NCBI GenBank assembly: GCA_965227405.1
Contig: OZ245758.1
Location: 3,060,338 to 3,124,337 of the forward strand
From: Polyangiales bacterium
GTDB taxonomy: Bacteria > Myxococcota_A > Polyangia > Polyangiales > Houyiibacteriaceae
Reading direction: 5' to 3'
DNA length: 64,000 nt
Positions 120 to 61,021 of this stretch are shown one piece after another. Below the pieces are notes generated by a model. It had not been told where the DNA came from. It did not search any database and saw nothing but the letters and a program-made list of their open reading frames with translations. Every line of letters begins with the position of its first letter. The stretch's first letter is position 1. A program made the position numbers and the translations under genes.

Positions 120-844
120 GCGGACCTCCGTCGCGCAACCAGTCGTGTCGCGATCAAGAGGCCCAAGTACGTGAGCGAAACGAGGTACACGACGTCGCTC
201 AGCTGCAGCAGACCGCGTCGAAAACTGCGGTGGTGGTTCCACACAGGAGCAAGTGCACGCAGCCAAGCACGCCACGTGGGTTCGGCGATGTCGGCGACGT
301 AGTAGCTGAGTTCCATCAGTCCCAACACCGCGCCGGTCAGTGCAACGGCTAGCAACCCGTAGCGTGTACTTGCCGCCGCTGCGCTTCCGATCGCGAGTAC
401 GGCAGCGCCGACCAGGAGCATGCCCAGGTAGCCTGCGCCGATGTGACCAAGCGAGACCGTACCGTTGACGAAAATCAGTGCCGGTAAGTAGAGCGAGGCC
501 AGGGTGACTGCGCCCAACACCCCAAACGCGCCCAGGAACTTCCCGACGACGATGTCGCGATCTCGGACAGGCGCCGACAACAAGAGTGGCGCCGTCGACT
601 CACCGAGAACCAAGCGCACGGACATCAGCGCGGCAATCGCTTCCACGACGAAGCCCGCGTTCAGCAGAAATGTTTCCAGAACAAGCGTGCTCGCGCGTCG
701 GCCTGTACCGATCGCGACTGCGTTGAGCTGCAATCCGTTGAGGACCAGAGATGCCGCAGCCAACACGTAGCCTGCGGGCGTGCGAAACCACGCGCCAAAC
801 TCGCGCTTGGCAATGGTCAGCGCTGCGATTCTGGTCGGTCTCAA
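116..844 (-). CDS. ABC-2 family transporter permease (6 TM)
   Basis: ORF 242 aa, multi-TM hydrophobic profile; start overlaps (ATGA) stop of upstream ABC ATPase. Confidence 0.7.
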   Translation of the reverse strand: MRPTRIAALTIAKREFGAWFRTPAGYVLAAASLVLNGLQLNAVAIGTGRRASTLVLETFLLNAGFVVEAIAALMSVRLVLGESTAPLLLSAPVRDRDIVVGKFLGAFGVLGAVTLASLYLPALIFVNGTVSLGHIGAGYLGMLLVGAAVLAIGSAAAASTRYGLLAVALTGAVLGLMELSYYVADIAEPTWRAWLRALAPVWNHHRSFRRGLLQLSDVVYLVSLTYLGLLIATRLVARRRSA

Positions 845-2659: not shown

Positions 2660-3517
2660 GTGGTAATTCGAACCCTTTTTCGCTATCCCGCCCCCATGAC
2701 CATCTTTCGAGGCGGGCTTTTCGAAGGCGACGTGGCGATTATCACCGGCGGCGGCACGGGAATCGGTCTGACCGTGGCCAAGGAGCTGGTGGCGCTTGGT
2801 GCCGATGTCGCGATTTGCGGACGACGTCTCGAACCCTTGGAAGCCGCAAGCGAAGAAATCAAAGCCGTGCGTGAAGGTGCGCGTGTGCACTTCGCAACGT
2901 GCGACATCCGCGACTACGAAGCCGTCGAGACCTTTGTGGATGGCGTGAAGGACGCACTCGGCAAAGTCGACATTCTCGTCAACAACGCGGGCGGTCAGTT
3001 TCCGACCACGGCGCAGCATCTCAAGTCCAAGGGCTTCGAAGCTGTGGTGCGCAACAACCTCGTGGGCACCTGGAACTTCACACACGCTGTCGCAACGCGC
3101 GCGTTCATTCCTCAGAAGCGCGGACGCATCGTCAACGTGATCGCGCAGGTCGCGCGCGGCTTTCCGGGAATGGTGCACACGGGTGCTGCACGTGCGGGTG
3201 TGGACAACATGACCAAGACGCTGTCGATCGAATGGTCGCAACACGGTGTGCGTGTAAACGCGGTCGCACCGGGGGTGATCAAAACCAGCGGAACCAAGCA
3301 GTACCCACCGCAGCTGTTGGAAGACGCCAAGAAGGCCAATCCATTGAAGCGTTTGGGTGCGCAGGAAGAAGTCTCGCACCTGATCGTGTATCTCGTGTCG
3401 AAGCAGGCCGACTTTGTGACCGGACAAACGTTCTATATCGATGGTGGCGCGAGCTTGTGGGGCGAGCAGTGGCCCATTCCGGAAGACATTCCGAAGTTCC
3501 CGCCCTACGAGATCTAG
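2660..3517 (+). CDS. SDR family NAD(P)-dependent oxidoreductase (2,4-dienoyl-CoA/enoyl reductase-like)
   Basis: TGGGTGIG Rossmann motif, NNAG, YxxxK-like region; alternative ATG start at 2693; TAG stop. Confidence 0.85.
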   Translation: MVIRTLFRYPAPMTIFRGGLFEGDVAIITGGGTGIGLTVAKELVALGADVAICGRRLEPLEAASEEIKAVREGARVHFATCDIRDYEAVETFVDGVKDALGKVDILVNNAGGQFPTTAQHLKSKGFEAVVRNNLVGTWNFTHAVATRAFIPQKRGRIVNVIAQVARGFPGMVHTGAARAGVDNMTKTLSIEWSQHGVRVNAVAPGVIKTSGTKQYPPQLLEDAKKANPLKRLGAQEEVSHLIVYLVSKQADFVTGQTFYIDGGASLWGEQWPIPEDIPKFPPYEI

Positions 3518-4986: not shown

Positions 4987-6179
4987 TGCTGCCGCTGAAC
5001 CTGGCGTGGAAGTTCATCCGCGAAGGGCGAACGCAATCGGTGCTGATCATCGTTGGCGTAGGTGTTGGTATCGGTGCGTTCGTATTTGTGTCCGCGATTA
5101 TCACCGGGCTGCAGGCGGACATGATCGAACGAACGTTAGGGACGCAAGCGCACCTGGTCATTGAATCCGAGGAGCCGCCGCCCCGTCCCTTAATGACCGA
5201 CGAGGACGCTTTGTTCGCGCGGCGCATTGAACCTGCACAGCCGCGCCGCAGACCCTTCGATCAGTGGCAGCGTGCTGTGCGTCGAATGGAGTCGGTGGAC
5301 GGTGTCGTCGCGGTGTGTCCTAAGGTTGCCGGCTCCGTGTTGGTGCAACGTGGTGCGACCCAGAAGGGAGCGTTGCTCATCGGTGCCGACCCGACACGTC
5401 TACGACGGATTGTGGATCTTGCGTCCGACATTCAAAGTGGCGAGTACCGGCTAGGCAGCGACGACGCGTTGATCGGAGACATCCTCGCAGCGGACTTGGG
5501 TGTGAGCGTGGGTGATCCGATCCGCGTGGTCAGCGATCGTCGCGAGCAAACCTTGCGAATCGCAGGGATCTATCACGCAGGTGCCCAAGCCGTAGATGGA
5601 GGTTGGGTTGTGACTTCGCTGCGCCGTGCACAAACTTTGCTCGATCGAATCGGCGATGTGACCGCGATCGATGCGCGCGTGGAAGACCCGTTTGAAGCCG
5701 ATGTGATTGCAGCACGTGCACGCGAGGCCACCAACCTCGAAATCGATTCATGGATGGGTCGCAACCAAGAGTTGCTCACCGCGCTCCGCTCTCAAAACCA
5801 AACCACCATGATGATTCGCGTCTTTGTGTTGATCGCGGTGGCGATGGGTATCGCCAGTGTCCTCTTCGTGAACATCATGCAGCGGCGCGGTCAGATCGGC
5901 ATCCTACGTGCCGTGGGAACGCGTCGTCGCACCGTGCTGGCCATCTTTCTCTGGCAGGGAACTCTACTCGGCGCGATCGGGTCCATGCTTGGCGTGATGA
6001 TAGGCGTGCTCTCGGCCAAGTCACTGGAGGGCGTCGCATTCTTCGAGATCCGCATCGCGCCATCGCTGGTCGCTACGGCCTTTGTGATCTCGATCCTGGT
6101 GGGTGTGGTTGCGGCGTTCTTTCCCGCACGACGCGCCGCGAGCATGGATCCCGTCGATGCGATTCGAGGCGACGGATGA
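4986..6179 (+). CDS. ABC transporter permease, FtsX/MacB/LolC family
   Basis: N-term TM + large periplasmic domain + 3 C-term TM; 397 aa. Confidence 0.85.
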   Translation: MLPLNLAWKFIREGRTQSVLIIVGVGVGIGAFVFVSAIITGLQADMIERTLGTQAHLVIESEEPPPRPLMTDEDALFARRIEPAQPRRRPFDQWQRAVRRMESVDGVVAVCPKVAGSVLVQRGATQKGALLIGADPTRLRRIVDLASDIQSGEYRLGSDDALIGDILAADLGVSVGDPIRVVSDRREQTLRIAGIYHAGAQAVDGGWVVTSLRRAQTLLDRIGDVTAIDARVEDPFEADVIAARAREATNLEIDSWMGRNQELLTALRSQNQTTMMIRVFVLIAVAMGIASVLFVNIMQRRGQIGILRAVGTRRRTVLAIFLWQGTLLGAIGSMLGVMIGVLSAKSLEGVAFFEIRIAPSLVATAFVISILVGVVAAFFPARRAASMDPVDAIRGDG

Positions 6180-7761: not shown

Positions 7762-7840
7762 CTTTCTGAACCGTGGCACACAACTGAATCGCTCGCTGTC
7801 CGATATGAGCAATCGGATGAACCGTGCTAACACTGCGCGC

Positions 7841-9199
7841 ATGATCAGACTCCGATTTGTCGGAGGCACCATCGAGATCACGGGGGCCGAAGAGGACGCG
7901 AGCTTTCCGCGAGCGCGGTGGGACAGCCGCGCGCGTTGCTTTCGAGCGCCCGGTTTCGCCTACGGCGACATCGTGATGCATCTGGTCCGAAGCGAAACCC
8001 CATACGAAGACGAAGCGCGCAACTACGCCGAGCTGCCTTCCGGTTTGCGCGTGCATCGCGAACCGCGTCCCTACCAACGTGCCGCGCTTCAGCAATGGCG
8101 AAAGAACCGCGGGCGCGGTGTCGTTGTTCTGCCAACAGGTGCGGGCAAGAGCCACGTTGCGATGATGGCGGCCGATGCGACGCGTCGTGCAACGCTCGTT
8201 GTGGCGCCGACTTTGGATCTCGTGCGTCAGTGGTACGACCTGCTTCGTTCGAGCTTCGGTTTGGATGTGGGCATTGTTGGTGGGGGTGAGCACGACGTAC
8301 GTGACCTGACCGTAACCACGTACGACTCGGCGTACATCCACATGGAGCACTTGGGTGCGCGGTTTGGATTGATCGTGTTCGACGAGTGCCACCACTTGCC
8401 TGGTGAGTCGTACACGTTGGCTGCGAAGCAGTGCCTGGCGCCTTACCGCTTGGGGTTGACGGCTACGCCTGACCGTCAAGATGGTCGGCACGAACTGCTC
8501 AACGAGTTGATCGGACCGATTGTGTATCGCGAAGAGATCGTCGGGATGAAAGGCGACTACCTCGCGGAGTACCGAACCGAGCGCATCTCGGTGGAGCTTT
8601 CGCCCGAAGAACGTCAGCAATACGAAGATGCGCGCCGCGTGTACCTCGCGTTCATCACCTCACAGGGCATCCGACTCAGCTCGCCGGGAGGATGGACCGA
8701 TTTCATCAAGCGTTCGTCGCGTTCGGAAGCCGGTCGACGCGCGATGGCGGCGTACCGCAAGCAGAAGAAACTCGCGTTCGCTGCACCTGCGAAGCTCGAC
8801 TACGTCTCGTTCTTGCTTGAGCAGCATCGCGACGATCGTTCGATTGTGTTCACGTCGGACAACGCGACTTGCTACGAGATTTCGAAACGCTACCTGGTTC
8901 CAGCGATCACGCACCAAACCAAGGTCAAAGAACGCAGCCACATCCTCGAAGCGTTTGCTGCAGGTACGTATCGTGCCGTTGTCACCTCCAAAGTGCTCAA
9001 CGAAGGCGTCGATGTTCCGGATGCAAACGTAGCGATCGTCGTCAGTGGTAGCGGCAGCGTCCGTGAACACGTGCAGCGACTCGGTCGCGTGCTGCGTAAA
9101 AAGGAAGGTAAGCGCGCCACGCTGTACGAGTTGATCACCGCGCGCACCGGCGAGGCGTACACCAGCGAGCGACGGAGGGATCACGTTGCTTACCGCTGA
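7841..9199 (+). CDS. XPB/Ssl2-like superfamily-2 DNA helicase (DEAH box)
   Basis: Motif I VVVLPTGAGKS, motif II DECHHL, LGLTATPDRQDG (RED-motif position), helicase C-terminal domain. Confidence 0.8.
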   Translation: MIRLRFVGGTIEITGAEEDASFPRARWDSRARCFRAPGFAYGDIVMHLVRSETPYEDEARNYAELPSGLRVHREPRPYQRAALQQWRKNRGRGVVVLPTGAGKSHVAMMAADATRRATLVVAPTLDLVRQWYDLLRSSFGLDVGIVGGGEHDVRDLTVTTYDSAYIHMEHLGARFGLIVFDECHHLPGESYTLAAKQCLAPYRLGLTATPDRQDGRHELLNELIGPIVYREEIVGMKGDYLAEYRTERISVELSPEERQQYEDARRVYLAFITSQGIRLSSPGGWTDFIKRSSRSEAGRRAMAAYRKQKKLAFAAPAKLDYVSFLLEQHRDDRSIVFTSDNATCYEISKRYLVPAITHQTKVKERSHILEAFAAGTYRAVVTSKVLNEGVDVPDANVAIVVSGSGSVREHVQRLGRVLRKKEGKRATLYELITARTGEAYTSERRRDHVAYR

Positions 9200-10382
9200 T
9201 CTCGTGCGCGCGTTTCGTCGCAAGACAGACTTGAAGCTGCGCAAGTTCGATAAGAAGACGCGCGACAAAGCGCTCGAACTCAGCGGTGCCTACTTGAACC
9301 TCGCGAGTGCGGGTCTCGAGTCGTCACGTCAGGAGCTGATGGAAGCGTTTTCGGGCGTGGAAGTTCCCGTACGCGATCAGAAGCTTGCAGACGGACTACG
9401 AAAGTTGGTGCTGGATCGCTGCACGTTTGAAGTGCCTTCGGAAGATCCGGTTTCGCTTCGCGCGAAGGTGTTTGAACGAGCCGCACGCTGGCGTGAAGAG
9501 CGGCGCTTCGATCGTGCTGCGTTGCTTGCTGAGGTGGCGGCGGAAGTCGATCTCGAACCGGATGTTCTCGCGAAGCTTCTCTACGCAGACTTGAAGGCGG
9601 CGCATCGCTTAGTCGAGTTCGCAGAGACCAACGCCAGTGGTTTGGTTCGTGAGTACCAGCTCGGACAGATCCAAGCGGTGTTGCTCAAGGCCGAGCGCGT
9701 GGTGGTCAACGTCGAATGTCAGGACGCGTCGGCGTATCGAAATCTGTTTCGGAAGCTCAAGTTTCATCGTTTGCTGTACACGATCGAAAAGAAGGGGAGT
9801 GGTTACCGGATGGTGATCGATGGGCCCTTCAGCATGTTTAGCGCGTCGACCAAGTACGGGTTGCAGCTGGCGATGATCGTGCCGGCGATTCGTGCATGTG
9901 AGCGTTGGTCGTTGGACGCGGATGTTCGATGGGGCAAGGACCGCGCGAAACTGCGCTTTCACGCGGAGGGTGGCAGCGAAGACGGTGCGGAGCCTGCGCC
10001 CTTGCCCAATGACGTCGAGAAGCTTTTGGAGAAGTTCAAGAAGCGCTTCAAGGACGGCAAGACCAAGTGGAAGCCCGCGCGTAGCAAAGCGATCCTGTCG
10101 TTGCCCGGTGTGGGTGTGTGCGTTCCCGACCTCGTGTTCACGCGCGCGAAGGTGAAAGTGCACCTTGAAGTGATGGGCTTTTGGAGTCGTGCTGCGGTGT
10201 GGCAGCGCGTCGAGTTGATCCAAGGTGGTTTGGACACACCGGTGCTCTTCGCCGTGCCGAAGCGACTGCGTGTGAGCGAAGCCGTATTGCCCGAAGACGT
10301 CCCTGGAGCCTTGTACGTGTACAAAGGCGTGATGAGCGTGAAAGCCATCGAAGAACGCCTCGACGGCTTCATCGATCAGTGA
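9186..10382 (+). CDS. Bax1-like / DUF790 family putative nuclease partner of XPB helicase
   Basis: 398 aa ORF overlapping helicase stop by 14 nt; size, charge pattern and gene context match Bax1/DUF790; no motif verified. Confidence 0.45.
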   Translation: MLTADLVRAFRRKTDLKLRKFDKKTRDKALELSGAYLNLASAGLESSRQELMEAFSGVEVPVRDQKLADGLRKLVLDRCTFEVPSEDPVSLRAKVFERAARWREERRFDRAALLAEVAAEVDLEPDVLAKLLYADLKAAHRLVEFAETNASGLVREYQLGQIQAVLLKAERVVVNVECQDASAYRNLFRKLKFHRLLYTIEKKGSGYRMVIDGPFSMFSASTKYGLQLAMIVPAIRACERWSLDADVRWGKDRAKLRFHAEGGSEDGAEPAPLPNDVEKLLEKFKKRFKDGKTKWKPARSKAILSLPGVGVCVPDLVFTRAKVKVHLEVMGFWSRAAVWQRVELIQGGLDTPVLFAVPKRLRVSEAVLPEDVPGALYVYKGVMSVKAIEERLDGFIDQ

Positions 10383-10451
10383 TCCCGGAGGGCTTCGAAC
10401 CCTCGACGCACCGATTTAGAGTCGGCTGCTCTACCCCTGAGCTACAGGATC
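10380..10451 (-). tRNA. tRNA, class I, 72 nt (no encoded CCA), hand-folded anticodon CUA (amber-reading), Lys-like backbone with A73
   Basis: Minus-strand read GATCCUG-UA-GCUC-AGGGGUA-GAGC-A-GCCGA-CUCUAAA-UCGGU-GCGUC-GAGGG-UUCGAAG-CCCUC-CGGGAUC-A; 7-bp acceptor with one G-U, U8, A14, GG18-19, U33, A37, GTTCGAA T-loop. Confidence 0.75.
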
Positions 10452-10480
10452 GTGAACGCACCTGGAGTGCGCTCTTCAGC

Positions 10481-10790
10481 TTACGTGTCCGTAAGCCATG
10501 CGCGAACCGCATCCACTCCAAGCTCGCTACCAAACGCGCCAAGCACGCGGTACACGGTCCATGGATTGACGGGCTCCCGATAGCTTCGCTCCACTCGCTT
10601 TCGCGGTGTGTCGCGCAGCATCGCGTACGCCAACAGGTGAGCGCGGATTTCATTGCGTCGCATCGCCACCTTCGACTGCGCCTTGCTAAGCGCATCTTCT
10701 GAAATGAGCGCCGCCTCTCGACGCTCCTGCTTGAGCTTCTTTTGCTCGTCCGCAAGACGGACGATCTCCGTCTTCAACGTTTCGGTCATG
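10481..10790 (-). CDS. Hypothetical small protein (102 aa)
   Basis: ATG 10790 preceded by AGGAGAAAAT SD; MTETLKTEIVRLADEQKKL... coiled-coil-like N-term; TAA stop. Confidence 0.5.
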
Positions 10791-10996
10791 ATTTTCTCCT
10801 CGTTGGAATGGTCGTTTGGGCTGAAGAAACGACCGCCGAGGAGGTCCACGCGCGTGCAGAACCAGTCGCCGACCCACGGTGAGGGTGCGGGCAGATTCGC
10901 AGCGTGGAAGATGTAGCTACGTCCAGGTCACGTCAGGAAGGTGACCACGAATTGATGCACGTCAAGCTTGTTGGCGAGCGAGCGCAGGTGGAGAGT

Positions 10997-13087: not shown

Positions 13088-15673
13088 CTAGGCGACCTCG
13101 TGTACCGCGATTGCCGGGTGAATCAGATATGCGCCGCGTCGGGTCAGAATCGCGTCGTGGAGACCGAGTTTGCGCAATGTGCTGATGGCAACGCGTAACC
13201 GGTTGGCTGCTGCGCGCGGCAACATGCGTTCTCCGGGCCATCCTGCAGCGACCAGCGCGTCACGTGGGATGGGTTCGTCGGGCTGCTCGCGATGCGCCGT
13301 GACCAGCGCGTGCAACACGTTGATCAGCGCATCACGACCTTCGAGCTCGATACGCTCGCCACCAGGCGGAGAGAACCAACTGGCGTCACTGCCCACGCTC
13401 AGTGCGTCACCCGAAGCGGGCTCCGTCGTCGTTTGGCGTGGCTTGACTCCTGAAAGCGTGCGCGCGGAGAACAAGACATCAGCATTCCGCCGAATCGGAG
13501 ACTCGCTGTCCCCAGCGCGTGCTTGATCGAGTCGTGCATCGCACTGGTCGCGAAGCGAGGAGGCGCGCGAAGCGTCGGTTTCGGCTTCCGCGCGTTCCAG
13601 ATGACCGCGTTGCAACTGCACCGCCAGTAGCAAGAAAGGATCGTGCAGTGTCGCGATCTGCTCTTCGGCTCGCTCCAGTGCATCGCGTCCGCGCTCGATA
13701 GCGCCGGTTCGGACTTCAGCTGCACCGAGATACGCCAAGAACAGGGCTTCGAAGCGAGGGTCCTTCGCTTCGACCAGCATCTGCACCGCAAGTTCAAGTT
13801 CGTGTCGAACCTCGTCAACGGGTGCACCTGCTTCCGATCGCGCAAGCGCTCGGTAGCCTCGAAACGCACCTTCGTACCGTCGCGCGCCGACGCGTCGAAA
13901 CGCGGCAATGGCGGCGTCGTACGCAGCGACAGCTTCGTCCAAGTGCAGACGCACATGATGAAGAATCCCGCGGTTCGCCGTGGTGAATGCCGAGCCGAAT
14001 CGATCGGCGACTTGGTCGTGAATCGCTTCGGCCTGCGCGAAGCAAATCATCGCGTCGTCGAACCGACCTTGGTCAATGAAGAGGTTGCCCAGGTAGGCAG
14101 TCACCAAACCTTCTTCGCGAAGAGCGCCTGCACGTTGAAGGAGTGCACGCGCCCTCTCTTCTGCCGCTTGCGCTTCGTCGACCTGTCCAAGTGCCGCCCG
14201 TGCAGCTCCGAGCGCACTCAAGGTTTGGGCTTCTTCGACCGGATCCGCGTCTCCACTCAAGAGCGGTAATGCGCGTTCGTAGTGTTCGATGGCTTCTTTG
14301 AGTTCGCCGGCAACAAGCGCCACGGTTCCGCGCGCACGTTCGGTTCTGGCTTCGAGTGCGGGAAGGTCCGAGGCGCGTGCCAACTCCAGTGCGCGATCCA
14401 GATCGGCAATCGCGTCATCGAGCTTGCCCGCTAGTCTGCGAGCGTCACCGCGATTGACGCGTGCACGAATCTCCTCGCTCGGCGCAAGCGGAGCTTTCAG
14501 TGCCTCTCCGAGCATCGCTTCGTACTCTTCGTAGGGACCTTGCGCGAGCATCGCGGGTCCCAACGCGATCGCTGCTCGAATCGACGCGTCGACGTTCGCA
14601 CGGGCTGCGGCTTTCAGGTTCTCGCGTTCCCGTCGAAGCTCTTCCCACGCCGACACCGTTTCCGGGCCGTGCAGCGCACTTTGCGCCGCCTCTCCGAGTG
14701 TCGCGTAGTAGCTCGCGTGTCGCTTCGCCGCGTGGACATCGTCCAGCTGTTCTGCTGCGAAATCGCGAATGCTGAGGAAGAGCCCGAAGCGACCGTCGCC
14801 TTCGGCTCGAAGAAGCGATTTTTCGAAGAGCGATTGGAGCACGTCCATGACCGACGCGTCGTCGATCGCCACGACTGCTTCCGCGGCTTCGAGGTCGAAC
14901 CCACCGCGGAACACGGAACACTGCGAGAGCACCGAGCGCTCTAGGTCGTCGAGCAGGTTCCACGACCATTCGATCGCACCGTGAAGCGTGCCTTGCTGTC
15001 CGCGCAGCAACTTGAAGCGAGCCTCGAGCCGTTGCAGCAACGTGTCGGCACCGAGGAACACCAAGCGCGGTGCCGCGAGTTCGAGGGCGAGTGGAATGCC
15101 GTCGAGTTGTTCGACGACGCGTGCAACCGTGTCGACGTCGTTGCGGCGAAGCGCAAATCCGTGTCGTAGACGACGCGCGCAACCCAGTAGCATCTGTACG
15201 CTCTCCGAGTCTGCGGGCGCGTGGGCTTCCGGAAGTCCAAGAGGGCCCAGTTCGATCACGCGTTCGTGATCGACGCGAAGCCGTTCGCGTGACGTGACCA
15301 GGATGCGGAGTTCAGGCGCGCCTTGGCTCCAACGCGCGATCATGGGAGCGGCTTCGAGTACCTGCTCGAAGTTATCCAACACCAGCAACGCGGGACCCAG
15401 CGCGTGGAGTGCGAGTTCGACGTTGCCCGCTTTGCCGAACGCTTCGCCGCTCGGAAGTTCAAGTGTTTCGGCGACGACTGCAGCCACGGCGTCCGCATCG
15501 AGCGCATGACTGAGGTCGCAGAAAAACGTGAGGTGATGGCGCGGCAGAAATTCGCGTGCGAGACGAGACTTTCCAATTCCCGCGGGACCGGTGAGCGTGA
15601 CAAGACGTGCGTCGCCGGAGAACGCTGTTCCCAATTCGTCGAGCTCTGCGTTCCGCCCCACGAAAACGCTCAT
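13088..15673 (-). CDS. Multidomain transcriptional regulator: AAA/NB-ARC-type ATPase + TPR repeats + C-terminal OmpR/PhoB-type winged helix
   Basis: FVGRNAELDEL, P-loop GPAGIGKS; long TPR-like alpha-helical middle; C-term RLRVAISTLRKLGL...ILTRRGAYLI matches trans_reg_C; start ambiguous (15673, 15814 or 15880). Confidence 0.7.
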   Translation of the reverse strand: MSVFVGRNAELDELGTAFSGDARLVTLTGPAGIGKSRLAREFLPRHHLTFFCDLSHALDADAVAAVVAETLELPSGEAFGKAGNVELALHALGPALLVLDNFEQVLEAAPMIARWSQGAPELRILVTSRERLRVDHERVIELGPLGLPEAHAPADSESVQMLLGCARRLRHGFALRRNDVDTVARVVEQLDGIPLALELAAPRLVFLGADTLLQRLEARFKLLRGQQGTLHGAIEWSWNLLDDLERSVLSQCSVFRGGFDLEAAEAVVAIDDASVMDVLQSLFEKSLLRAEGDGRFGLFLSIRDFAAEQLDDVHAAKRHASYYATLGEAAQSALHGPETVSAWEELRRERENLKAAARANVDASIRAAIALGPAMLAQGPYEEYEAMLGEALKAPLAPSEEIRARVNRGDARRLAGKLDDAIADLDRALELARASDLPALEARTERARGTVALVAGELKEAIEHYERALPLLSGDADPVEEAQTLSALGAARAALGQVDEAQAAEERARALLQRAGALREEGLVTAYLGNLFIDQGRFDDAMICFAQAEAIHDQVADRFGSAFTTANRGILHHVRLHLDEAVAAYDAAIAAFRRVGARRYEGAFRGYRALARSEAGAPVDEVRHELELAVQMLVEAKDPRFEALFLAYLGAAEVRTGAIERGRDALERAEEQIATLHDPFLLLAVQLQRGHLERAEAETDASRASSLRDQCDARLDQARAGDSESPIRRNADVLFSARTLSGVKPRQTTTEPASGDALSVGSDASWFSPPGGERIELEGRDALINVLHALVTAHREQPDEPIPRDALVAAGWPGERMLPRAAANRLRVAISTLRKLGLHDAILTRRGAYLIHPAIAVHEVA

Positions 15674-25150: not shown

Positions 25151-25708
25151 ATGAGCGAAGCCGATCCCAAGACCGACGCAGAGATGAAGACTGCGATCGA
25201 CGACTTGCTCCGCGAGGTGCGTCACGAACGCGACAAGTGGGATGGTGCACTGTCCACGTTTCGAGGATTTCTCGAAGGCGACATGAAAAGCGTTGCGCGC
25301 GATCTCCTGAAGGCAGCCGCCAAGCGTGAGCGTTTGGAGTTGCAGTGGACGCTCGATGAGCTGCTCGAAGAAACCGCACCGCCCGAGCCGAAGAAGAAGG
25401 CACCACCGCCTGCACGTGAGCCGGCGCCTGAACCTGAAGCGCCGCCGACCAACGCAGCACCTGGACAGCTTCGTCCCGAGGACCTCGTGCCCATCTACGA
25501 CGACCCGCGTGGCTTGATGATCCATCGCCACAAAACCGACGGGCGTTGGTTCCTGACACAGATCAACCCGCAGACGGGACAGCCGCAGACCATGGAACTC
25601 GCGGAGCACCACAAGTCGCAAATCCAGGCGGAGCTCGCGGGTAGCCCGCACTGGCTCGAGAAGTCTTGGGCTGGAAGCGGCGGTCCGACCGGCGGCCTGA
25701 TTACCTAG
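25151..25708 (+). CDS. Hypothetical protein (Pro/Ala/Glu-rich linker)
   Basis: ORF downstream of gyrB; ATG 25151; TAG stop. Confidence 0.45.
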   Translation: MSEADPKTDAEMKTAIDDLLREVRHERDKWDGALSTFRGFLEGDMKSVARDLLKAAAKRERLELQWTLDELLEETAPPEPKKKAPPPAREPAPEPEAPPTNAAPGQLRPEDLVPIYDDPRGLMIHRHKTDGRWFLTQINPQTGQPQTMELAEHHKSQIQAELAGSPHWLEKSWAGSGGPTGGLIT

Positions 25709-40292: not shown

Positions 40293-40306
40293 TTGAGTCT
40301 ACACAG

Positions 40307-40561
40307 TCAACGCATGCCGCGGTCGCGGCGTTCGTGGTTGTGCGGGACGCAGACCAAGCGAGTTTCTTCAACATCGCGTGGAGGCGTGCGGCACGTACCT
40401 TCGAGTTGGCCGTGCGGGGTGTCGACTGAGCAGAGCGTGCCTTCTTCTTGGTTCTGGCAAGCGGCGAACGCCTCGGGCGGAGGTCGACGCATGTTGGGCG
40501 GTTGGGCCAGGACGAACGCGGGCAGGGCAATCGCGGCGAGCAGGGAGAGAAACTTGGTCAT
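40307..40561 (-). CDS. Small secreted protein (~84 aa) leading the HK/RR operon
   Basis: MTKFLSLLAAIALPAFVLAQP signal peptide; 4 Cys. Confidence 0.45.
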   Translation of the reverse strand: MTKFLSLLAAIALPAFVLAQPPNMRRPPPEAFAACQNQEEGTLCSVDTPHGQLEGTCRTPPRDVEETRLVCVPHNHERRDRGMR

Positions 40562-40971
40562 GCGGCACGTTCTTTCAATCATCGTGCCGCACTGGTTTCG
40601 GGTTGAGTGGCCGGCGTGCATGCACGCGGGCGGCAAGAACCGCAGACGACGAGTGCGAAGTCCGCAGTCTTCCATCGAACGTTGTCTAAACACCGGCAAA
40701 GACGGACGGCACGCTCTTCGCTAGGTCCTGGGTGTGGCTCGCATCGCACTCCCCCTCCTCGTCCAGCCACCTTCGCATCACAGGTGCACACGGCCTCGGG
40801 TCAAGCCGAGCCGTGCTGCGCCTGGCGGGGGACGCGCCGTCGCGGGCTATGGGATTACAAGACTTCGAAGAGAGCTAAGTGGAGTGGATTTGTTTGTCGA
40901 TACGAGGAGCCGACGCTTGAACGGCGTTACCTGAAGCTCGCTCCAAAGCGTTAGGTCGGTGTTCTTATTAA

Positions 40972-41058
40972 CCGGAAGTGCGGGAAGACTGGAAGGCGGG
41001 AAGGTCTTGGAAACGAACCTTCCCGCCTTCCAGCCTTCCCGCACTTCCGGAAAAAAAA
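40972..41058. repeat. Near-perfect 34-bp inverted repeat (one mismatch), 11-nt loop, followed by A8
   Basis: Arms 40972-41005 and 41017-41050; loop cttggaaacga; a8 at 41051-41058. Confidence 0.8.
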
Positions 41059-41137
41059 GAATGTCGACCACCCCACTAAAGCGACATCGTAGTTCGCCTT
41101 CACGCTCCTAGTTCGTTAGTCGCCACAATGAGCAAGC

Positions 41138-51801: not shown

Positions 51802-52583
51802 AACCGTGAACGAACGCGGCAGTGTCCGAGACCACACGCGACTTGGGTGTCGCTCTCGTTTGAGCCTGCGGCAACCCACCACACAACGCCCGCAACTGCG
51901 CTGAGAACCGCGGTTCCAAAGAGCACATCGGTGGTGCGAGTCATGCGGCGTAAGTCATCGCGATCCGACGCTGCATCAGGTGGACATTCGCCACCCGGGC
52001 AACGTTCGTCGAGTGAGTCGTATCGGTTGTTGGCGACGAGCGCGGTGGCAACACCCGCGACGAGAGCAGCACCCGCAGTGGCGAAGAGGACGAACGGTCC
52101 AACGCGCGAAGGCGGTTCGGGCTCAGGCTCAACGATGGGAGCTTCGCGCTCTTCGGGCTCGACGTCGTCGGGCTCCGTGGCTTCTGCGGACTGCGTTTGG
52201 TTGCCCAGCACTTCGATGCGGCGTCGCACGTAGTTCGTGTTTCGCGCGTCGGGCACCGCTTCGAGGTACGCCTGATACTGCTCACGTGCCTCGGCTGGAC
52301 GTCCCAATCGATCGAGAGCAGTCGCGATGTTGTACAGCAGCTCGGGGCGCTCGCTCAGTTCGTAGGCTTCTCGCCACCGGGCAAGCGAATCTTCGAAGCG
52401 ACCATCCGAGAATGCTGCAGTTCCAGCTTCGTAGAGGCTACGGGCTTCGCCGTCGGTGGCTTCATTGGGTCCGTCATCGGTGTCGGTTTCGTCCGGCGGT
52501 CCTTCGCCCGACGCGTACTGCGTCATGCCGAGACTCGACGCGAATAGAACCGAAACAAACACCAGAGATCGCATCGTCTTCAT
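51798..52583 (-). CDS. Secreted TPR-containing protein with C-terminal TM
   Basis: MKTMRSLVFVSVLFASSLG signal peptide; TPR-like helices; ATGA overlap with upstream RCC1 gene. Confidence 0.55.
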   Translation of the reverse strand: MKTMRSLVFVSVLFASSLGMTQYASGEGPPDETDTDDGPNEATDGEARSLYEAGTAAFSDGRFEDSLARWREAYELSERPELLYNIATALDRLGRPAEAREQYQAYLEAVPDARNTNYVRRRIEVLGNQTQSAEATEPDDVEPEEREAPIVEPEPEPPSRVGPFVLFATAGAALVAGVATALVANNRYDSLDERCPGGECPPDAASDRDDLRRMTRTTDVLFGTAVLSAVAGVVWWVAAGSNESDTQVACGLGHCRVRSRF

Positions 52584-55500
52584 GGCAACTCCACGCGCGT
52601 CGGCAAGTAGTAGAGCGACGTGCCGTGACCGGCGCCGCCGTATTCGTTGCGCCCCCAACATTGGATGGAGCCCGCAGGGTCGGCGTCACCTTGAAGTGCG
52701 CACGTGAGAAAGCCGGTGTCGTTCCCGCTCGACAGCGCCGTGACATCGTTCAACCCGGCAACGAGCACAGGGGTCGTCGCGTCCGAGGTGTCGAGCCGTC
52801 CGAGTTGGTGGTAGTCGTTTGCTCCCCAACAACGAACAGAGCCATCGGTGTACGCGGCACACGAATGCAAGTTGCCCGCTGCGATCGCAACCGCGGGCAT
52901 CGCGGTGTAGCCGACCAGAACAGGAACGCCGAGTCCGCCCGAGGGACCTCCGAGCTGTCCTCGGAAGGAAGAACCCCAACAGCGCACCTGACCAGAACTT
53001 TGAATTGCACACGTGTGTGCGGAACCTGCCGCGATGGCGGTCACGTCGGACAGACCCATCACAGGAGCGGGAGTGTGTCGCAGCGTATCGGTACCGTCGC
53101 CCAACTGCCCACTCTCGTTTGCACCCCAACACTCGACCGTGCCACCCGTGCGAAGCGCGCATGCGTGTCGGTGGCCAAGCGCGAGCGCGATGGCGTCGTT
53201 GATGGGAGTCGCCAAAGGTCCGGGACTCACTGTCGGCGAAGCAAGCGGTTGTCCGGCCTGGCCCTCCGAGTTGAAACCCCAGCAGTTGACCGAGCCCGTG
53301 TCACTGATGGAGCAGGTCGTTGCCGATCCCGTTTCGACCGCGATCTGATCGTCCGCGAGTGCCACCAAGCGAGGGCTTGAAGACGAGCTTCCCGCACTGC
53401 CGAGTTGGCCGCTGGTGTTCCCACCCCAGCAGTACACCTGTCTTCCTGAACCACCATCGTTGATGGCGCAGGAATGGCCGCGCCCAGTCGCGATGTGCAC
53501 GACGTTGGTCAGCGTCACGACGTCGACGGGGTGCGCTTTGCTCAAGCTGGTCATGTCTCCCAGCGCACCCGATACGTTGATGCCCCAACACCGATCGATT
53601 CCAGTTCGAATCGCGCAAGCATGGTCTGAACCGACGGCGAGTGCGCTGTAGCCACTCTCTTCGGTGCCATCGAGCGCGCGGACTGGACTTGGACTCTCGA
53701 TCTGGAGGGTGTCGCGCGGAATGCTCCCTTCGAAACTCGCGCCCCAGCAGTACGCTTGGCCGTCGCGAATTGCGCATGCGCCGCGTCGACCTGCGTCGAA
53801 GCCTTCCATTCCGTCGAGCTCAGGAATGTCGATGTCGCCGCCGTCGGTCGTGAAGGGTGTGGTTTCGCCGTTGCCCCACTGGCTTTCCACGTTGCGCCCG
53901 CTGCACGTCGCGCCGTCGGCCGTCTCCCAACACAGGCTGAACAAGCTTTGCCACGTGTTGAGGACCGGACCCGGTGCGACTTCGATGGGCGTCAGCTCGC
54001 GGTTGCCCGTGCGTCGTGGTCCGATGTGTCCGCCGCTATTGTTGCCCCAGCACGAAAGTCGACCGCCGTCATGGATCGCGCAGAAGGTCTGCCACATGCC
54101 GTCGACCACCGTTGCGCCCGTCATGCCCGTGACTTGAACCGGAGTTGCGCTGTTGGTGGTGGTGTCGTTGCCGAGTTGTCCTTGGTTGTTGGTTCCCCAA
54201 CACCACACACTCCCGTCGTCGAGCGCCGCACAACTCGCCCCGTTGTTCACCGCAATGTTGACTGCGTCGGTGGGTAAGCCCGTGACACGTCGAGCGCCTT
54301 CGCCGTTTCCGGATCCCGGGATGCTGCCGTTTTGTTGGATCCCCCAACACCACACGGTTCCCATGTCGTCGATTGCACAACCGTGTCCTTCGTTGGCGTC
54401 GAGATCGACGAAAGTGCGCGGGTCGAACATGCCTGCCTCGGTGTCCGCAACGACCGGCTGCGGGAAGGGCGTGTTGCCGGTGCCAGGGCCAGCACCAAGC
54501 CGGCTGCCTTGTCCCCAACACCAGAGTTCTCCGTCGAGGTCGATCGCACAGGTAAAGGCGTTGCCTGCAGAGACTACGCGAGCGCGGAACACAGCTGCAC
54601 CGGGTGCAGACGAAACGACGATCGGCTGTGGTGCTTCTGCCGCTCGCGGTGATCCCACACCGGCTTGGCTGTTGTCGCTTTCGCCCCAGCACAGCACAGC
54701 ACCACTTTCGCGAACCACGCACGCCTGCCCCTCACCGCGCGCGACCTGAACCACGGGATCGCACACGCCCAAGCGACAGTTCGTGCCGGAGTCACAGACG
54801 TTTCCACACGCGCCGCAGTGGTTTGGATCGTCGTTGAGGGACGCTTCGCAGCCATCGTCCGCGTCGTCGTTGCAGTCCCCGTAGTCGGGTTCGCAGGAGT
54901 CGATTTCGCACGCGGACATCGCACAGCTTTGCGTGAGCACTCGCGTGTCGTCGCACGTCATTCCGCAACCCCCGCAGTTGGCGAGGTCGTTGGTGGTGTT
55001 GGTCTCGCACCCTTCGGCGTCGGGATCGCAGTCGTCCCGGCCAGCCAAACACGAAAACCCACACATCGAGTCGGCGCAGGTCGCCTCTTCAGCACCAGCG
55101 GGAACAGGACACTCGTTGTCGCAGTCGCCGCAACGTTGTGGGTTCGTCGACGTGTCGACGCACTCGTCTCCACAGATGGTGCCACCGCAGTCCTCGTTAC
55201 AAATCGGAGTTGCACCCGTGGAATCGCACAGCTCGCCGGCTGCACAGCTGTTTTCGCAGCTTCCACACGTCAACGTGGACTGCAGACTGGCTTCGCACCC
55301 GTTGCCTGGATCGCCATCGCAATCTTCGAATCCCGTGCGGCAGTTCATCAACTCGCACATCGAGTCCGAACATGCACCCGTGGCGTTGTCGAACATGCAC
55401 GCTGTGCCGCATGCGCCGCAGTTGTCGACGTCGCGGGTGGTGTCGGTTTCACACCCGTTCGTGGCGTCACCGTCGCAATCGTCGAATCCGGTCTCGCACG

Positions 55501-55690
55501 TGTACTCGCACATCGCGTCGGTACAGACCGCGCTGGCTCTCGCTCGCGCCGGACAGTCGTCGGCTGTGACGCACATCGGCATGGCGTCGGTCCCGGCGTC
55601 ATCGACGATTGTGAAGTCGCCGGGGTCGCGCAGCAGGCTGCACCCCCCGAGCACGACGCTCGCTATGACGAGCGATGCTCTCCCATCCAT
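52580..55690 (-). CDS. Large lipoprotein with N-terminal Cys-rich repeats and multiple RCC1 (beta-propeller) repeats
   Basis: MDGRASLVIASVVLGGCS lipobox; repeated hxCAL/AxxxDGSVxCWGxNxxGQLG units. Confidence 0.8.
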   Translation of the reverse strand: MDGRASLVIASVVLGGCSLLRDPGDFTIVDDAGTDAMPMCVTADDCPARARASAVCTDAMCEYTCETGFDDCDGDATNGCETDTTRDVDNCGACGTACMFDNATGACSDSMCELMNCRTGFEDCDGDPGNGCEASLQSTLTCGSCENSCAAGELCDSTGATPICNEDCGGTICGDECVDTSTNPQRCGDCDNECPVPAGAEEATCADSMCGFSCLAGRDDCDPDAEGCETNTTNDLANCGGCGMTCDDTRVLTQSCAMSACEIDSCEPDYGDCNDDADDGCEASLNDDPNHCGACGNVCDSGTNCRLGVCDPVVQVARGEGQACVVRESGAVLCWGESDNSQAGVGSPRAAEAPQPIVVSSAPGAAVFRARVVSAGNAFTCAIDLDGELWCWGQGSRLGAGPGTGNTPFPQPVVADTEAGMFDPRTFVDLDANEGHGCAIDDMGTVWCWGIQQNGSIPGSGNGEGARRVTGLPTDAVNIAVNNGASCAALDDGSVWCWGTNNQGQLGNDTTTNSATPVQVTGMTGATVVDGMWQTFCAIHDGGRLSCWGNNSGGHIGPRRTGNRELTPIEVAPGPVLNTWQSLFSLCWETADGATCSGRNVESQWGNGETTPFTTDGGDIDIPELDGMEGFDAGRRGACAIRDGQAYCWGASFEGSIPRDTLQIESPSPVRALDGTEESGYSALAVGSDHACAIRTGIDRCWGINVSGALGDMTSLSKAHPVDVVTLTNVVHIATGRGHSCAINDGGSGRQVYCWGGNTSGQLGSAGSSSSSPRLVALADDQIAVETGSATTCSISDTGSVNCWGFNSEGQAGQPLASPTVSPGPLATPINDAIALALGHRHACALRTGGTVECWGANESGQLGDGTDTLRHTPAPVMGLSDVTAIAAGSAHTCAIQSSGQVRCWGSSFRGQLGGPSGGLGVPVLVGYTAMPAVAIAAGNLHSCAAYTDGSVRCWGANDYHQLGRLDTSDATTPVLVAGLNDVTALSSGNDTGFLTCALQGDADPAGSIQCWGRNEYGGAGHGTSLYYLPTRVELP

Positions 55691-60235: not shown

Positions 60236-61021
60236 CTACGCCAAGCTGGCGAGCAGGGCACCGCGCATCACTTCGACCGGCGCGTTTCGCCCTGTCCAGA
60301 GTTCCAACGCGGCCGCGCCTTGATGCACGAGCATTCCCGTTCCATCGACGATGCGAAGCCCTTGGTTCTCGGCGCGCTGCAGAACCGTGGTGTGGCGTGG
60401 TGTGTAGACCAGATCACAAACCGTGGCGTGCTTGGGCAAGGCATCGAGCGGAAGTGCGTCTGCGAAGGCGCGCGCTTCGTCACCCAAGGTGGCGGAGGTG
60501 GCTTGGATCACCAAGTCGGTACCCGGAAACACATCGCCCAAATTCGTCCAGTCCAAAGCCGTGCCAATCTCGCGCGCGGCTGCGAATCGACGTGCGGCGA
60601 TGTGAACGCTGGCATCGCGTAGCGCATGAACCGCAGCGCGTGCCGCGCCACCTGCCCCCAAGACCACGGCGTTGCATCCGGCAATCTCGACACCGGCTTC
60701 TTCGAGAGAGCGTCGCAGACCCAGCGAGTCTGTGTTTGTTCCTACCCATCGATCATCAACGCGATACACGGTGTTCACCGCACCGATCGCGTCGGCAACA
60801 GAGTCTACTTCGTCGACCCAGTCCATCACGGCCAGCTTGTGTGGAAGCGTGACGTTGAACCCATCGAGTTCTGCCGCGTCCAGCGTGTCGTGCAATGCGT
60901 CAGGTTCGATGGCGACGGCGTCGTAGCGCGCGTCCAACCCGAGCGACTTGAACGCGGCGTTGTGCATCAGGGGTGAACGCGAGTGCTTCACCGGCCAGCC
61001 GATGACCGCGTAGCGTTTCAC
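60236..61021 (-). CDS. aroE: Shikimate dehydrogenase
   Basis: YAVIGWPVKHSRSPLMHNAAF, NVTLPHK, GAGGAARA motifs. Confidence 0.9.
   Translation of the reverse strand: MKRYAVIGWPVKHSRSPLMHNAAFKSLGLDARYDAVAIEPDALHDTLDAAELDGFNVTLPHKLAVMDWVDEVDSVADAIGAVNTVYRVDDRWVGTNTDSLGLRRSLEEAGVEIAGCNAVVLGAGGAARAAVHALRDASVHIAARRFAAAREIGTALDWTNLGDVFPGTDLVIQATSATLGDEARAFADALPLDALPKHATVCDLVYTPRHTTVLQRAENQGLRIVDGTGMLVHQGAAALELWTGRNAPVEVMRGALLASLA

Follow-up and report, generated by a model that had tools for sequence, protein, structure and literature searches.

What might a tRNA that should read the amber stop codon UAG be doing in a bacterial chromosome where TAG ends genes in the ordinary way? This question was raised by a 64,000-nucleotide stretch of a Polyangiales genome (Myxococcota_A; assembly GCA_965227405.1, contig OZ245758.1, positions 3,060,338 to 3,124,337; hereafter the window), in which an earlier reading of the letters, referred to below as the original prediction, had described a tRNA gene with a CUA anticodon beside a small gene. 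The amber-suppressor observation was confirmed, as the tRNA is canonical and its anticodon is CUA. Moreover, the small open reading frame (ORF) directly upstream, which had been treated as incidental, formed with the tRNA a conserved unit that has relatives in phages.

The CUA tRNA and the use of TAG in its genome

A single tRNA was detected by ARAGORN in the whole window (10379-10451, minus strand), and its anticodon was called as cta. The Rfam family RF00005 matched 10380-10451 of the same strand over the whole model (cmscan; positions 1-71/71, E = 4.1e-11), with a score of 62.3 bits against a gathering score of 29, so that the match is far beyond chance. The cloverleaf folded by hand in the original prediction was obtained from the sequence as claimed, in agreement with both programs. 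The acceptor stem had 7 bp (GAUCCUG/CGGGAUC, with one U6.G67 wobble), U8 and A14 were present, and a D stem of 4 bp carried the D loop AGGGGUA, which includes G18G19. The anticodon stem had 5 bp (GCCGA/UCGGU) and held a 7-nt loop, CUCUAAA (10415-10421), with U33 in place. These were followed by a variable loop of 5 nt (GCGUC), a T arm GAGGG-UUCGAAG-CCCUC and the discriminator A73; CCA was not encoded by the gene. The A36-A37-A38 context, which MiaA uses for i6A37 in E. coli, was also present. ARAGORN printed the label "tRNA-Pyl", a consequence of the anticodon alone. The last three bases of the tRNA are the reverse complement of the TGA stop of a convergent DUF790/Bax1-like ORF (9186-10382, plus strand), so the 3-nt overlap reported earlier is real.

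Genes were called with a self-trained codon model (n = 53, covering 93% of the window), a GC3-based calling having been dropped as too noisy. Their stop codons were TGA in 33 genes, TAG in 14 and TAA in 6, which puts TAG at 26% of the stops. In the gene for shikimate dehydrogenase AroE (60236-61021), TAG came 4 residues past the SDH_C domain, at the canonical C-terminus. TAG is thus an ordinary stop codon in the source genome and UAG is not reassigned, as the original prediction had argued from neighbouring TAG stops, among them those at 3515-3517, 13088-13090 and 25706-25708, which were borne out. In-frame ORFs downstream of the TAGs at 13088, 41579, 58301 and 60236 were considered as possible products of read-through and rejected; each is a gene in its own right, with a start, signal peptide or domain that belongs to it. 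A scan of the window for starts of the form ATG-(0-3 codons)-TAG returned only ordinary starts, with a normal start nearby.

The tRNA had been proposed to derive from a tRNA-Lys(CUU) backbone by a change of U36 to A, an origin that was not established. Indeed, the nearest annotated phage tRNAs in BLAST were CAU-anticodon 'Met/Ile' types (84.6% over 65 nt), full-length identity was similar for Asn (78%), Lys(CUU) (76%) and Phe (75%), and the variable loop was of 4 nt in most members of the tRNA family. The body corresponds to the broad class of tRNAs for ANN codons, within which only Lys(CUU) lies one substitution from CUA. The LysRS identity set of E. coli comprises position 34 (C tolerated), U35, U36 and A73, with a preference for A31-U39, U35 and A73 favouring charging by LysRS (PMC1483225). 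The window tRNA has C34, U35, A73 and A31-U39, U36 being replaced by A, and lacks the GlnRS set (U1-A72, G2-C71, G3-C70, G36, U38, G73; PMC1483225). Since features preferred by LysRS are present and GlnRS determinants absent, lysine is the best guess for the amino acid carried, a guess made by analogy with E. coli rather than from a demonstrated origin.

Conservation of the tRNA together with the small gene

The small uncharacterised gene beside the tRNA is real. Its close homologues, among 5.8 billion proteins searched, fell into 5 clusters with 65-93% identity. All six contigs encoding them (L030 to L035, from ENA and Logan samples) carried a CUA tRNA about 30 nt downstream on the same strand, and a remote relative (L044) also carried a homologous CUA tRNA. 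The locus was also present in an independent assembly (Logan SRR23272279, L001), where the tRNA differed only by U6 to C, a change that makes a C-G pair of U.G. Overall, 7 distinct tRNA sequences with 80-99% identity were obtained from independent assemblies, and the sequence differences among the homologous loci exclude assembly copies of a single strain.

All 21 pairs of the cloverleaf were standard in 7/7 tRNA homologues, with 146/146 base-pair cells paired. Five pairs (3-70, 4-69, 50-64, 51-63 and 52-62) were altered on both sides, and covariation as high as that observed occurred in 0/500 shuffles. The cloverleaf is preserved by compensatory changes across the lineage. The anticodon arm, GCCGACUCUAAAUCGG, was invariant in all members of the tRNA family, including the remote L044. 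This pattern indicates a tRNA under purifying selection, not a one-off mutant. A megablast of the locus against phage and plasmid collections and a blastn of the tRNA against E. coli genomes returned nothing, and DNA-pattern scans of metagenome and viral contigs for the tRNA returned only non-homologous CUA tRNAs.

The downstream flanks of the homologous loci were unalignable, the small ORF and the tRNA staying adjacent while the flanks change. In L030 (10405-12168), two extra genes and about 950 nt lay between the 3' end of the tRNA and Bax1, which the tRNA abuts in the window. These genes encode a 134-aa protein without family and a 104-aa NIF-type phosphatase, and the indel lies at the 3' side of the tRNA, the typical place for insertions that target tRNA genes. 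The closest XPB-Bax1 loci in named genomes were all from Myxococcota metagenome-assembled genomes (MAGs; Polyangia and Bradymonadia), with at most 50% identity. The CUA tRNA was absent from 28/28 of these distant Myxococcota loci (<=50% identity), which argues that it is lineage-specific and not part of the XPB-Bax1 pair. The pair itself is kept across many Myxococcota MAGs. In the window (7817-10382, plus strand), the gene for the XPB helicase (XPB_DRD domain) overlaps that for the DUF790/Bax1-type nuclease by 14 nt, and the helicase also scored against the PADLOC PbeA models (E = 2e-54).

The spacer between the small ORF and the tRNA contained a hairpin that stops 2 nt short of position +1 of the tRNA, with a minimum free energy of -13.3 kcal/mol (z = -2.5). 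Equivalent hairpins of 8-11 bp, with a different sequence and mostly formed by GTGCAC palindromes, were observed at the same position in L030, L032, L033 and L035. Neither a U-tract nor a terminator-like site was found in the spacer by the promoter/terminator scan.

About 200 nt upstream of the small ORF were more conserved than the ORF itself (5 lineages). This region exhibited a TTGAC motif at 10961-10965 and several near-invariant blocks, with a near-invariant block of 50 nt directly before the GAGGAG ribosome-binding site; it probably corresponds to a promoter/operator and a 5' untranslated region. In the leader structure predicted by RNAalifold, the Shine-Dalgarno region with GAGGAG (10796-10802) is paired to CCUCCUC (10837-10843), and between the two strands lies a hairpin of 8 bp (10810-10834) whose 9-nt loop, CUUCAGCCC, is invariant. 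A search of Rfam gave no match to the leader. We hypothesise that the leader may sequester the ribosome-binding site.

The partner protein and its relatives beside other stop-reading tRNAs

The small protein was predicted by AlphaFold to form a long helical hairpin with two short helices (pLDDT 90.9). It matched no Pfam, NCBIfam, PHROG or PADLOC family, and a fold search of the PDB gave no informative match; the best fold relatives were uncharacterised phage proteins in BFVD (TM 0.84, 30% identity). An exhaustive profile search yielded 23 remote homologues of 100-150 aa. The family shares the motif R..LLAYA.LRG.PY..VE and a C-terminal W, with R49, E67 and W98 as invariant residues. For this analysis, it was defined as proteins of about 100-150 aa that match a profile seeded by the window protein and lie beside a tRNA with a stop anticodon. 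The window protein, with its adjacent CUA tRNA, belongs to it, and the profile matched with E = 1e-17 to 1e-40 in all listed loci. Judged by these relatives, the partner family is an uncharacterised and largely phage-borne one.

Among cultured phages, Stenotrophomonas phages DLP3 and DLP5 have a CUA tRNA 7-8 nt after the gene for a small-protein homologue, annotated in DLP5 as 'tRNA-Sup-CTA'. The DLP3 tRNA (L053 3307-3380, MT110073.1 49181-49254) is wrongly given as tRNA-Glu in GenBank, its anticodon being CUA according to ARAGORN. The homologue in Ruegeria phage DSS3_MAL1 has a CUA tRNA 113 nt upstream. Other partner tRNAs were of a different kind. In L047, a tRNA 10 nt downstream has an 8-nt anticodon loop, UUUUCAAC, read as 'ttca' by ARAGORN; in the phage-like L049/L050, a UCA tRNA with a 9-nt anticodon loop is followed by a second odd tRNA. 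These tRNAs (L047 786-860; L049 5466-5539 and 5779-5855; L050 3736-3809 and 3833-3909; all plus strand) are structurally odd: UUCA, of the opal or quadruplet type, stands in anticodon loops of 8 or 9 nt, and the D stem of the first tRNA of L049/L050 has 6 bp, the second tRNA having an enlarged anticodon arm. Across lineages, the partner tRNAs were 60-76% identical and had different discriminator bases; they are not homologous, and their common property is the stop anticodon.

A second neighbour recurred at these loci, a gene of the PTH2 type, assigned from precomputed matches to Pfam PF01981 and from a match to the archaeal Pth2 structure 1WN2. L044 showed the order small protein, PTH2, CUA tRNA homologous to that of the window, while in L048 and L052 the small protein was followed by PTH2, L052 also carrying a phage-only PHROG. 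In one remote member (P0023, 248 aa), the small-protein domain was fused to a PTH2-like domain in a single polypeptide, a natural fusion which argues that the two act together. As the family occurs beside unrelated stop-reading tRNAs (CUA and UCA) and is often coupled or fused to PTH2, the partner protein most likely acts on the suppression process itself and not on one particular tRNA body.

PTH2-like genes were also found near the CUA tRNA at non-homologous loci returned by a DNA-pattern search, two from metagenomes (L039 and L040) and one from a viral contig (L041), none of which encodes the small protein. In all three, the conserved N-terminus of the PTH2-like protein could be translated only from ATG-TAG (L039, L040) or ATG-AAA-TAG (L041), without an alternative start; L040 also has a GGAG ribosome-binding site. 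With TAG at codon 2-3 and no other start, translation should require amber suppression, and the PTH2-like enzyme of these loci appears to be made only when suppression is active. We take this arrangement as direct sequence evidence that the CUA tRNAs of L039, L040 and L041 would decode UAG. The genes starting with ATG-TAG also hint at a feedback or recycling circuit.

Table 1. Location of the features of the unit, with the amber-containing starts of PTH2-like genes at other loci. Window coordinates unless a locus is named.
Feature	Location	Strand	Basis or remark
tRNA, CUA anticodon, canonical elongator type	10380..10451	-	ARAGORN, Rfam RF00005, 7 distinct homologues
Anticodon C34-U35-A36	10417..10419	-	Read directly from the sequence
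GC-rich hairpin, 9 bp	10454..10474	-	Within the 29-nt spacer from the small-ORF stop to the tRNA 5' end
Small ORF, 102 aa, partner protein	10481..10789	-	ATG at 10789, TAA at 10481-10483; also called as 102 aa in an independent assembly
Conserved region upstream of the small ORF	10790..10965	-	Alignment of 5 lineages (proteins 65-74% identical to that of the window)
Predicted leader structure	10796..10843	-	RNAalifold consensus and single-sequence centroid
ATG-TAG start of a PTH2-like gene	L039 2469-2474	-	
ATG-TAG start of a PTH2-like gene	L040 ~431-436	-	
ATG-AAA-TAG start of a PTH2-like gene	L041 ~5990-5998	+	

The window around the unit has a GC content of about 61% and resembles a core bacterial chromosome. 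Its genes include an HlyD-MacB-ABC efflux set, the XPB helicase and DUF790/Bax1, beta-helix lipoproteins, an AAA-TPR protein, GyrB, AroE and FolK, and the annotated neighbours of the tRNA are XPB, DUF790, a beta-helix lipoprotein and a TPR ATPase. Elsewhere in the window, the 1036-aa product of a gene at 52580-55690 (minus strand) has a large RCC1-like repeat domain in its C-terminal part (PF25390, E = 1e-126), an unusual feature in bacteria, and 845 nt at 40293-41137 contained no gene called by the codon model in an otherwise 93%-coding sequence.

Explanations for the unit

The explanation that we hold to be probable is that of a selected, co-transcribed suppressor unit with weak or conditional read-through of UAG, whose partner acts on suppression, and which would be a chromosomally fixed version of the mobile module without PTH2. 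The tRNA and the small ORF directly upstream would form a two-gene unit, kept by selection and fixed in the core chromosome of a Myxococcota lineage, near gyrB and next to XPB-Bax1. Both genes would be transcribed together from the conserved upstream region. RNase P would then release the tRNA and leave an mRNA ending in the conserved spacer hairpin, which would protect its 3' end. The host CCA-adding enzyme would complete the tRNA, a host synthetase, most probably LysRS, would charge it, and the charged tRNA would compete with RF1, giving limited or conditional read-through of UAG. The partner protein may control, target or buffer the suppressor, for example at the ribosome or at the level of acyl- or peptidyl-tRNA. 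In its origin, the window unit is most simply seen as a domesticated mobile module that lacks the PTH2 component. A broader proposal, to which we give tentative and somewhat less than even weight, is that small protein, stop-reading tRNA and often PTH2, whose ATG-TAG start can need the suppressor, make up a widespread mobile 'nonsense-suppression module', which would have been domesticated here for regulated read-through.

A number of observations weigh against a suppressor unit of this kind. First, a search of the 64-kb window for client genes with an early or in-frame TAG gave none, and none interrupted by TAG was evident in DLP5, in agreement with PMC9022506. A candidate for read-through in DLP5, into DLP05_073, was rejected, as the Met start that is conserved lies further downstream and the conservation seen upstream belongs to another frame. 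Secondly, with TAG at 26% of the stops, an efficient constitutive suppressor would be costly, so its activity is assumed to be weak or regulated. Thirdly, the promoter/terminator consensus scan gave nothing, the sigma-70 consensus scan showed no site upstream of the small ORF, and the leader structure had a folding z of -0.67 and showed no covariation, the sequences being nearly invariant. Finally, the association is not universal. The family member of jumbo phage NCTB had no tRNA or PTH2 within 3 kb (L058 3001-4220, LT598654.1 21136-22355; an unannotated gap of 885 nt follows the gene), and no tRNA was present in the L045, L048 and L052 contigs (1-2 kb); the L045, L046 and L051 contigs, of 0.5-1.2 kb, are too short to show the surroundings. 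Likewise, hmmsearch in six frames, with TAG read as X, detected no PTH2-like ORF in the window, L030 or L032, and the whole genome of DLP5 contained no PTH2-like gene. The window locus thus holds two parts of the three-part module, small protein, PTH2 and suppressor tRNA.

The unit might instead be cargo that serves phages, either a mobile-element remnant or a resident part, which would matter only while a phage with in-frame TAG genes infects or is induced, or which would let the host sense such phages or interfere with them, and would otherwise contribute little to host translation. The protein family occurs mostly in phage contexts (DLP3, DLP5, DSS3_MAL1, L049/L050, the PHROG of L052 and the BFVD fold matches), phage suppressor tRNAs are known code-switch machinery (10.1101/2021.08.26.457843), and the two extra genes of L030 are inserted at the 3' side of the tRNA. 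However, no phage, integrase or mobility genes were found around the unit in the window, and synteny with XPB-Bax1, the beta-helix genes and gyrB is kept between carriers that have diverged to 84% identity in Bax1 (window versus L030) and 47% in the neighbouring beta-helix protein (window versus L032). Such conserved synteny across diverged carriers fits vertical inheritance in a core chromosome, and we regard the cargo explanation as unlikely.

We find it still more improbable that the tRNA has a non-decoding role, as a decoy or substitute for a tRNA-targeting nuclease, as the substrate or regulator of a hydrolase, or as an element of mRNA processing or stability. The recurrent link to a PTH2-type hydrolase does suggest chemistry on acylated tRNA, the hairpin-tRNA arrangement at the mRNA 3' end is conserved, and the cost of a constitutive suppressor noted above also speaks for this role. 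On the other hand, a stop anticodon (CUA or UCA) is all that the unrelated partner tRNAs have in common, the features of an elongator are all intact, and TAG at codon 2-3 of a PTH2-like gene in three loci would be sensible only if the tRNA decodes UAG.

It would be very surprising if the codon decoded were not UAG, through a modification of C34 (e.g. lysidine-like, as in tRNA-Ile2) that would make the tRNA read UAA or differ from a plain CUA. The CAU-anticodon Met/Ile2-like types among the nearest phage tRNAs in BLAST and an anticodon stem resembling that of tRNA-Ile2 and tRNA-Lys (G27.U43, A31-U39) would fit this idea. It is, however, pure speculation, as a DNA sequence does not reveal tRNA modifications; pairs 3-70 and 4-69 of the acceptor stem differ among members of the tRNA family, and the ATG-TAG genes elsewhere argue that CUA partner tRNAs read UAG.

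The remaining candidates, with a negligible chance, were a sporadic mutant or decaying tRNA gene, a tRNA-Pyl (the ARAGORN label) and a genome-wide reassignment of UAG, all refuted by the conservation and stop-usage data, namely an invariant anticodon arm with stems that covary over the 7 sequences, a standard cloverleaf with G18G19 and T-loop and no pyl-like genes among the annotated neighbours in the window, and TAG as the stop of 26% of genes, the conserved AroE C-terminus included.

The suppressor unit was compared with known systems. tRNA-Pyl (pylT) has the same anticodon and decodes UAG where UAG is also a stop. It has a short D loop without G18G19, a variable loop of 3 nt and an anticodon stem of 6 bp, and comes with pylS and pylBCD; in contrast, the window tRNA has GG in the D loop and an anticodon stem of 5 bp, with a variable loop of 4-5 nt in its family. 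The tRNA-Leu UAA of Streptomyces bldA is a developmental regulator that reads a sense codon; it offers only an analogy, without implied homology, as a single dispensable tRNA that gates a small set of genes with a rare codon. The E. coli suppressors (supD/E/F and engineered CUA tRNAs) are of the same elongator type, with CUA and competition with RF1. However, they arose in the laboratory or sporadically, by point mutation of duplicated sense tRNAs, and lack conservation between species, whereas the window tRNA shows conservation with covariation and comes with its own dedicated partner gene and a leader. Suppressor-type tRNAs are as rare in nature as the original prediction had supposed, occurring sporadically in about 0.3% of standard-code bacterial genomes, where they were read as compensating for nonsense mutations (PMC13092985).

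The nearest likeness was found in the Delepquintavirus siphophages of Stenotrophomonas (DLP5, DLP3 and Summit), with the same two-part arrangement in DLP3 and DLP5. These copies are phage-borne and head a small tRNA cluster, whereas the window unit is chromosomal and vertically conserved, and their tRNAs are not homologous to that of the window (71-76% identity, different discriminator base). The published descriptions of these phages do not mention the neighbouring protein, and the authors of the Summit study wrote that the purpose of the suppressor tRNA 'remains unknown' (PMC9022506). Recoded phages (crAss-like, Lak and others) also bring a canonical stop-reading tRNA into a cell that uses that stop, and their suppressor tRNAs (UAG or UGA) were proposed to act as a translational switch (10.1101/2021.08.26.457843). 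They differ in having many in-frame stops and a depleted stop usage, in contrast to the window, where TAG is a common stop and no in-frame TAG gene was found. Borges et al. name tRNA, aminoacyl-tRNA synthetase and release factors as the machinery for code change, neither a hydrolase nor a small partner protein being among them (10.1101/2021.08.26.457843), and no paper linking PTH2 with suppressor tRNAs was found in the literature searched.

Suppressor tRNAs themselves are already known. With respect to the literature and libraries searched, three things appear to be new: a suppressor tRNA is conserved throughout a lineage, in the core chromosome of bacteria whose TAG usage is normal; a dedicated partner family recurs beside amber- and opal-type tRNAs in phages and bacteria; and this family is repeatedly linked to PTH2. 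There is a realistic chance that the whole module is a new system. Natural suppressors in standard-code bacteria are usually dismissed as sporadic mutants, and the present one seems to be kept by selection even though TAG makes up a quarter of the stops. In cultured phages as in metagenomes, suppressor tRNAs with unrelated sequences are marked by the partner family. Together with the PTH2 link, in some cases with an amber codon at codon 2-3, these points offer a testable handle on how read-through of stop codons is deployed and tolerated, for which DLP5 with Stenotrophomonas and DSS3_MAL1 with Ruegeria provide workable experimental systems. The findings may also supply new parts for genetic-code engineering.

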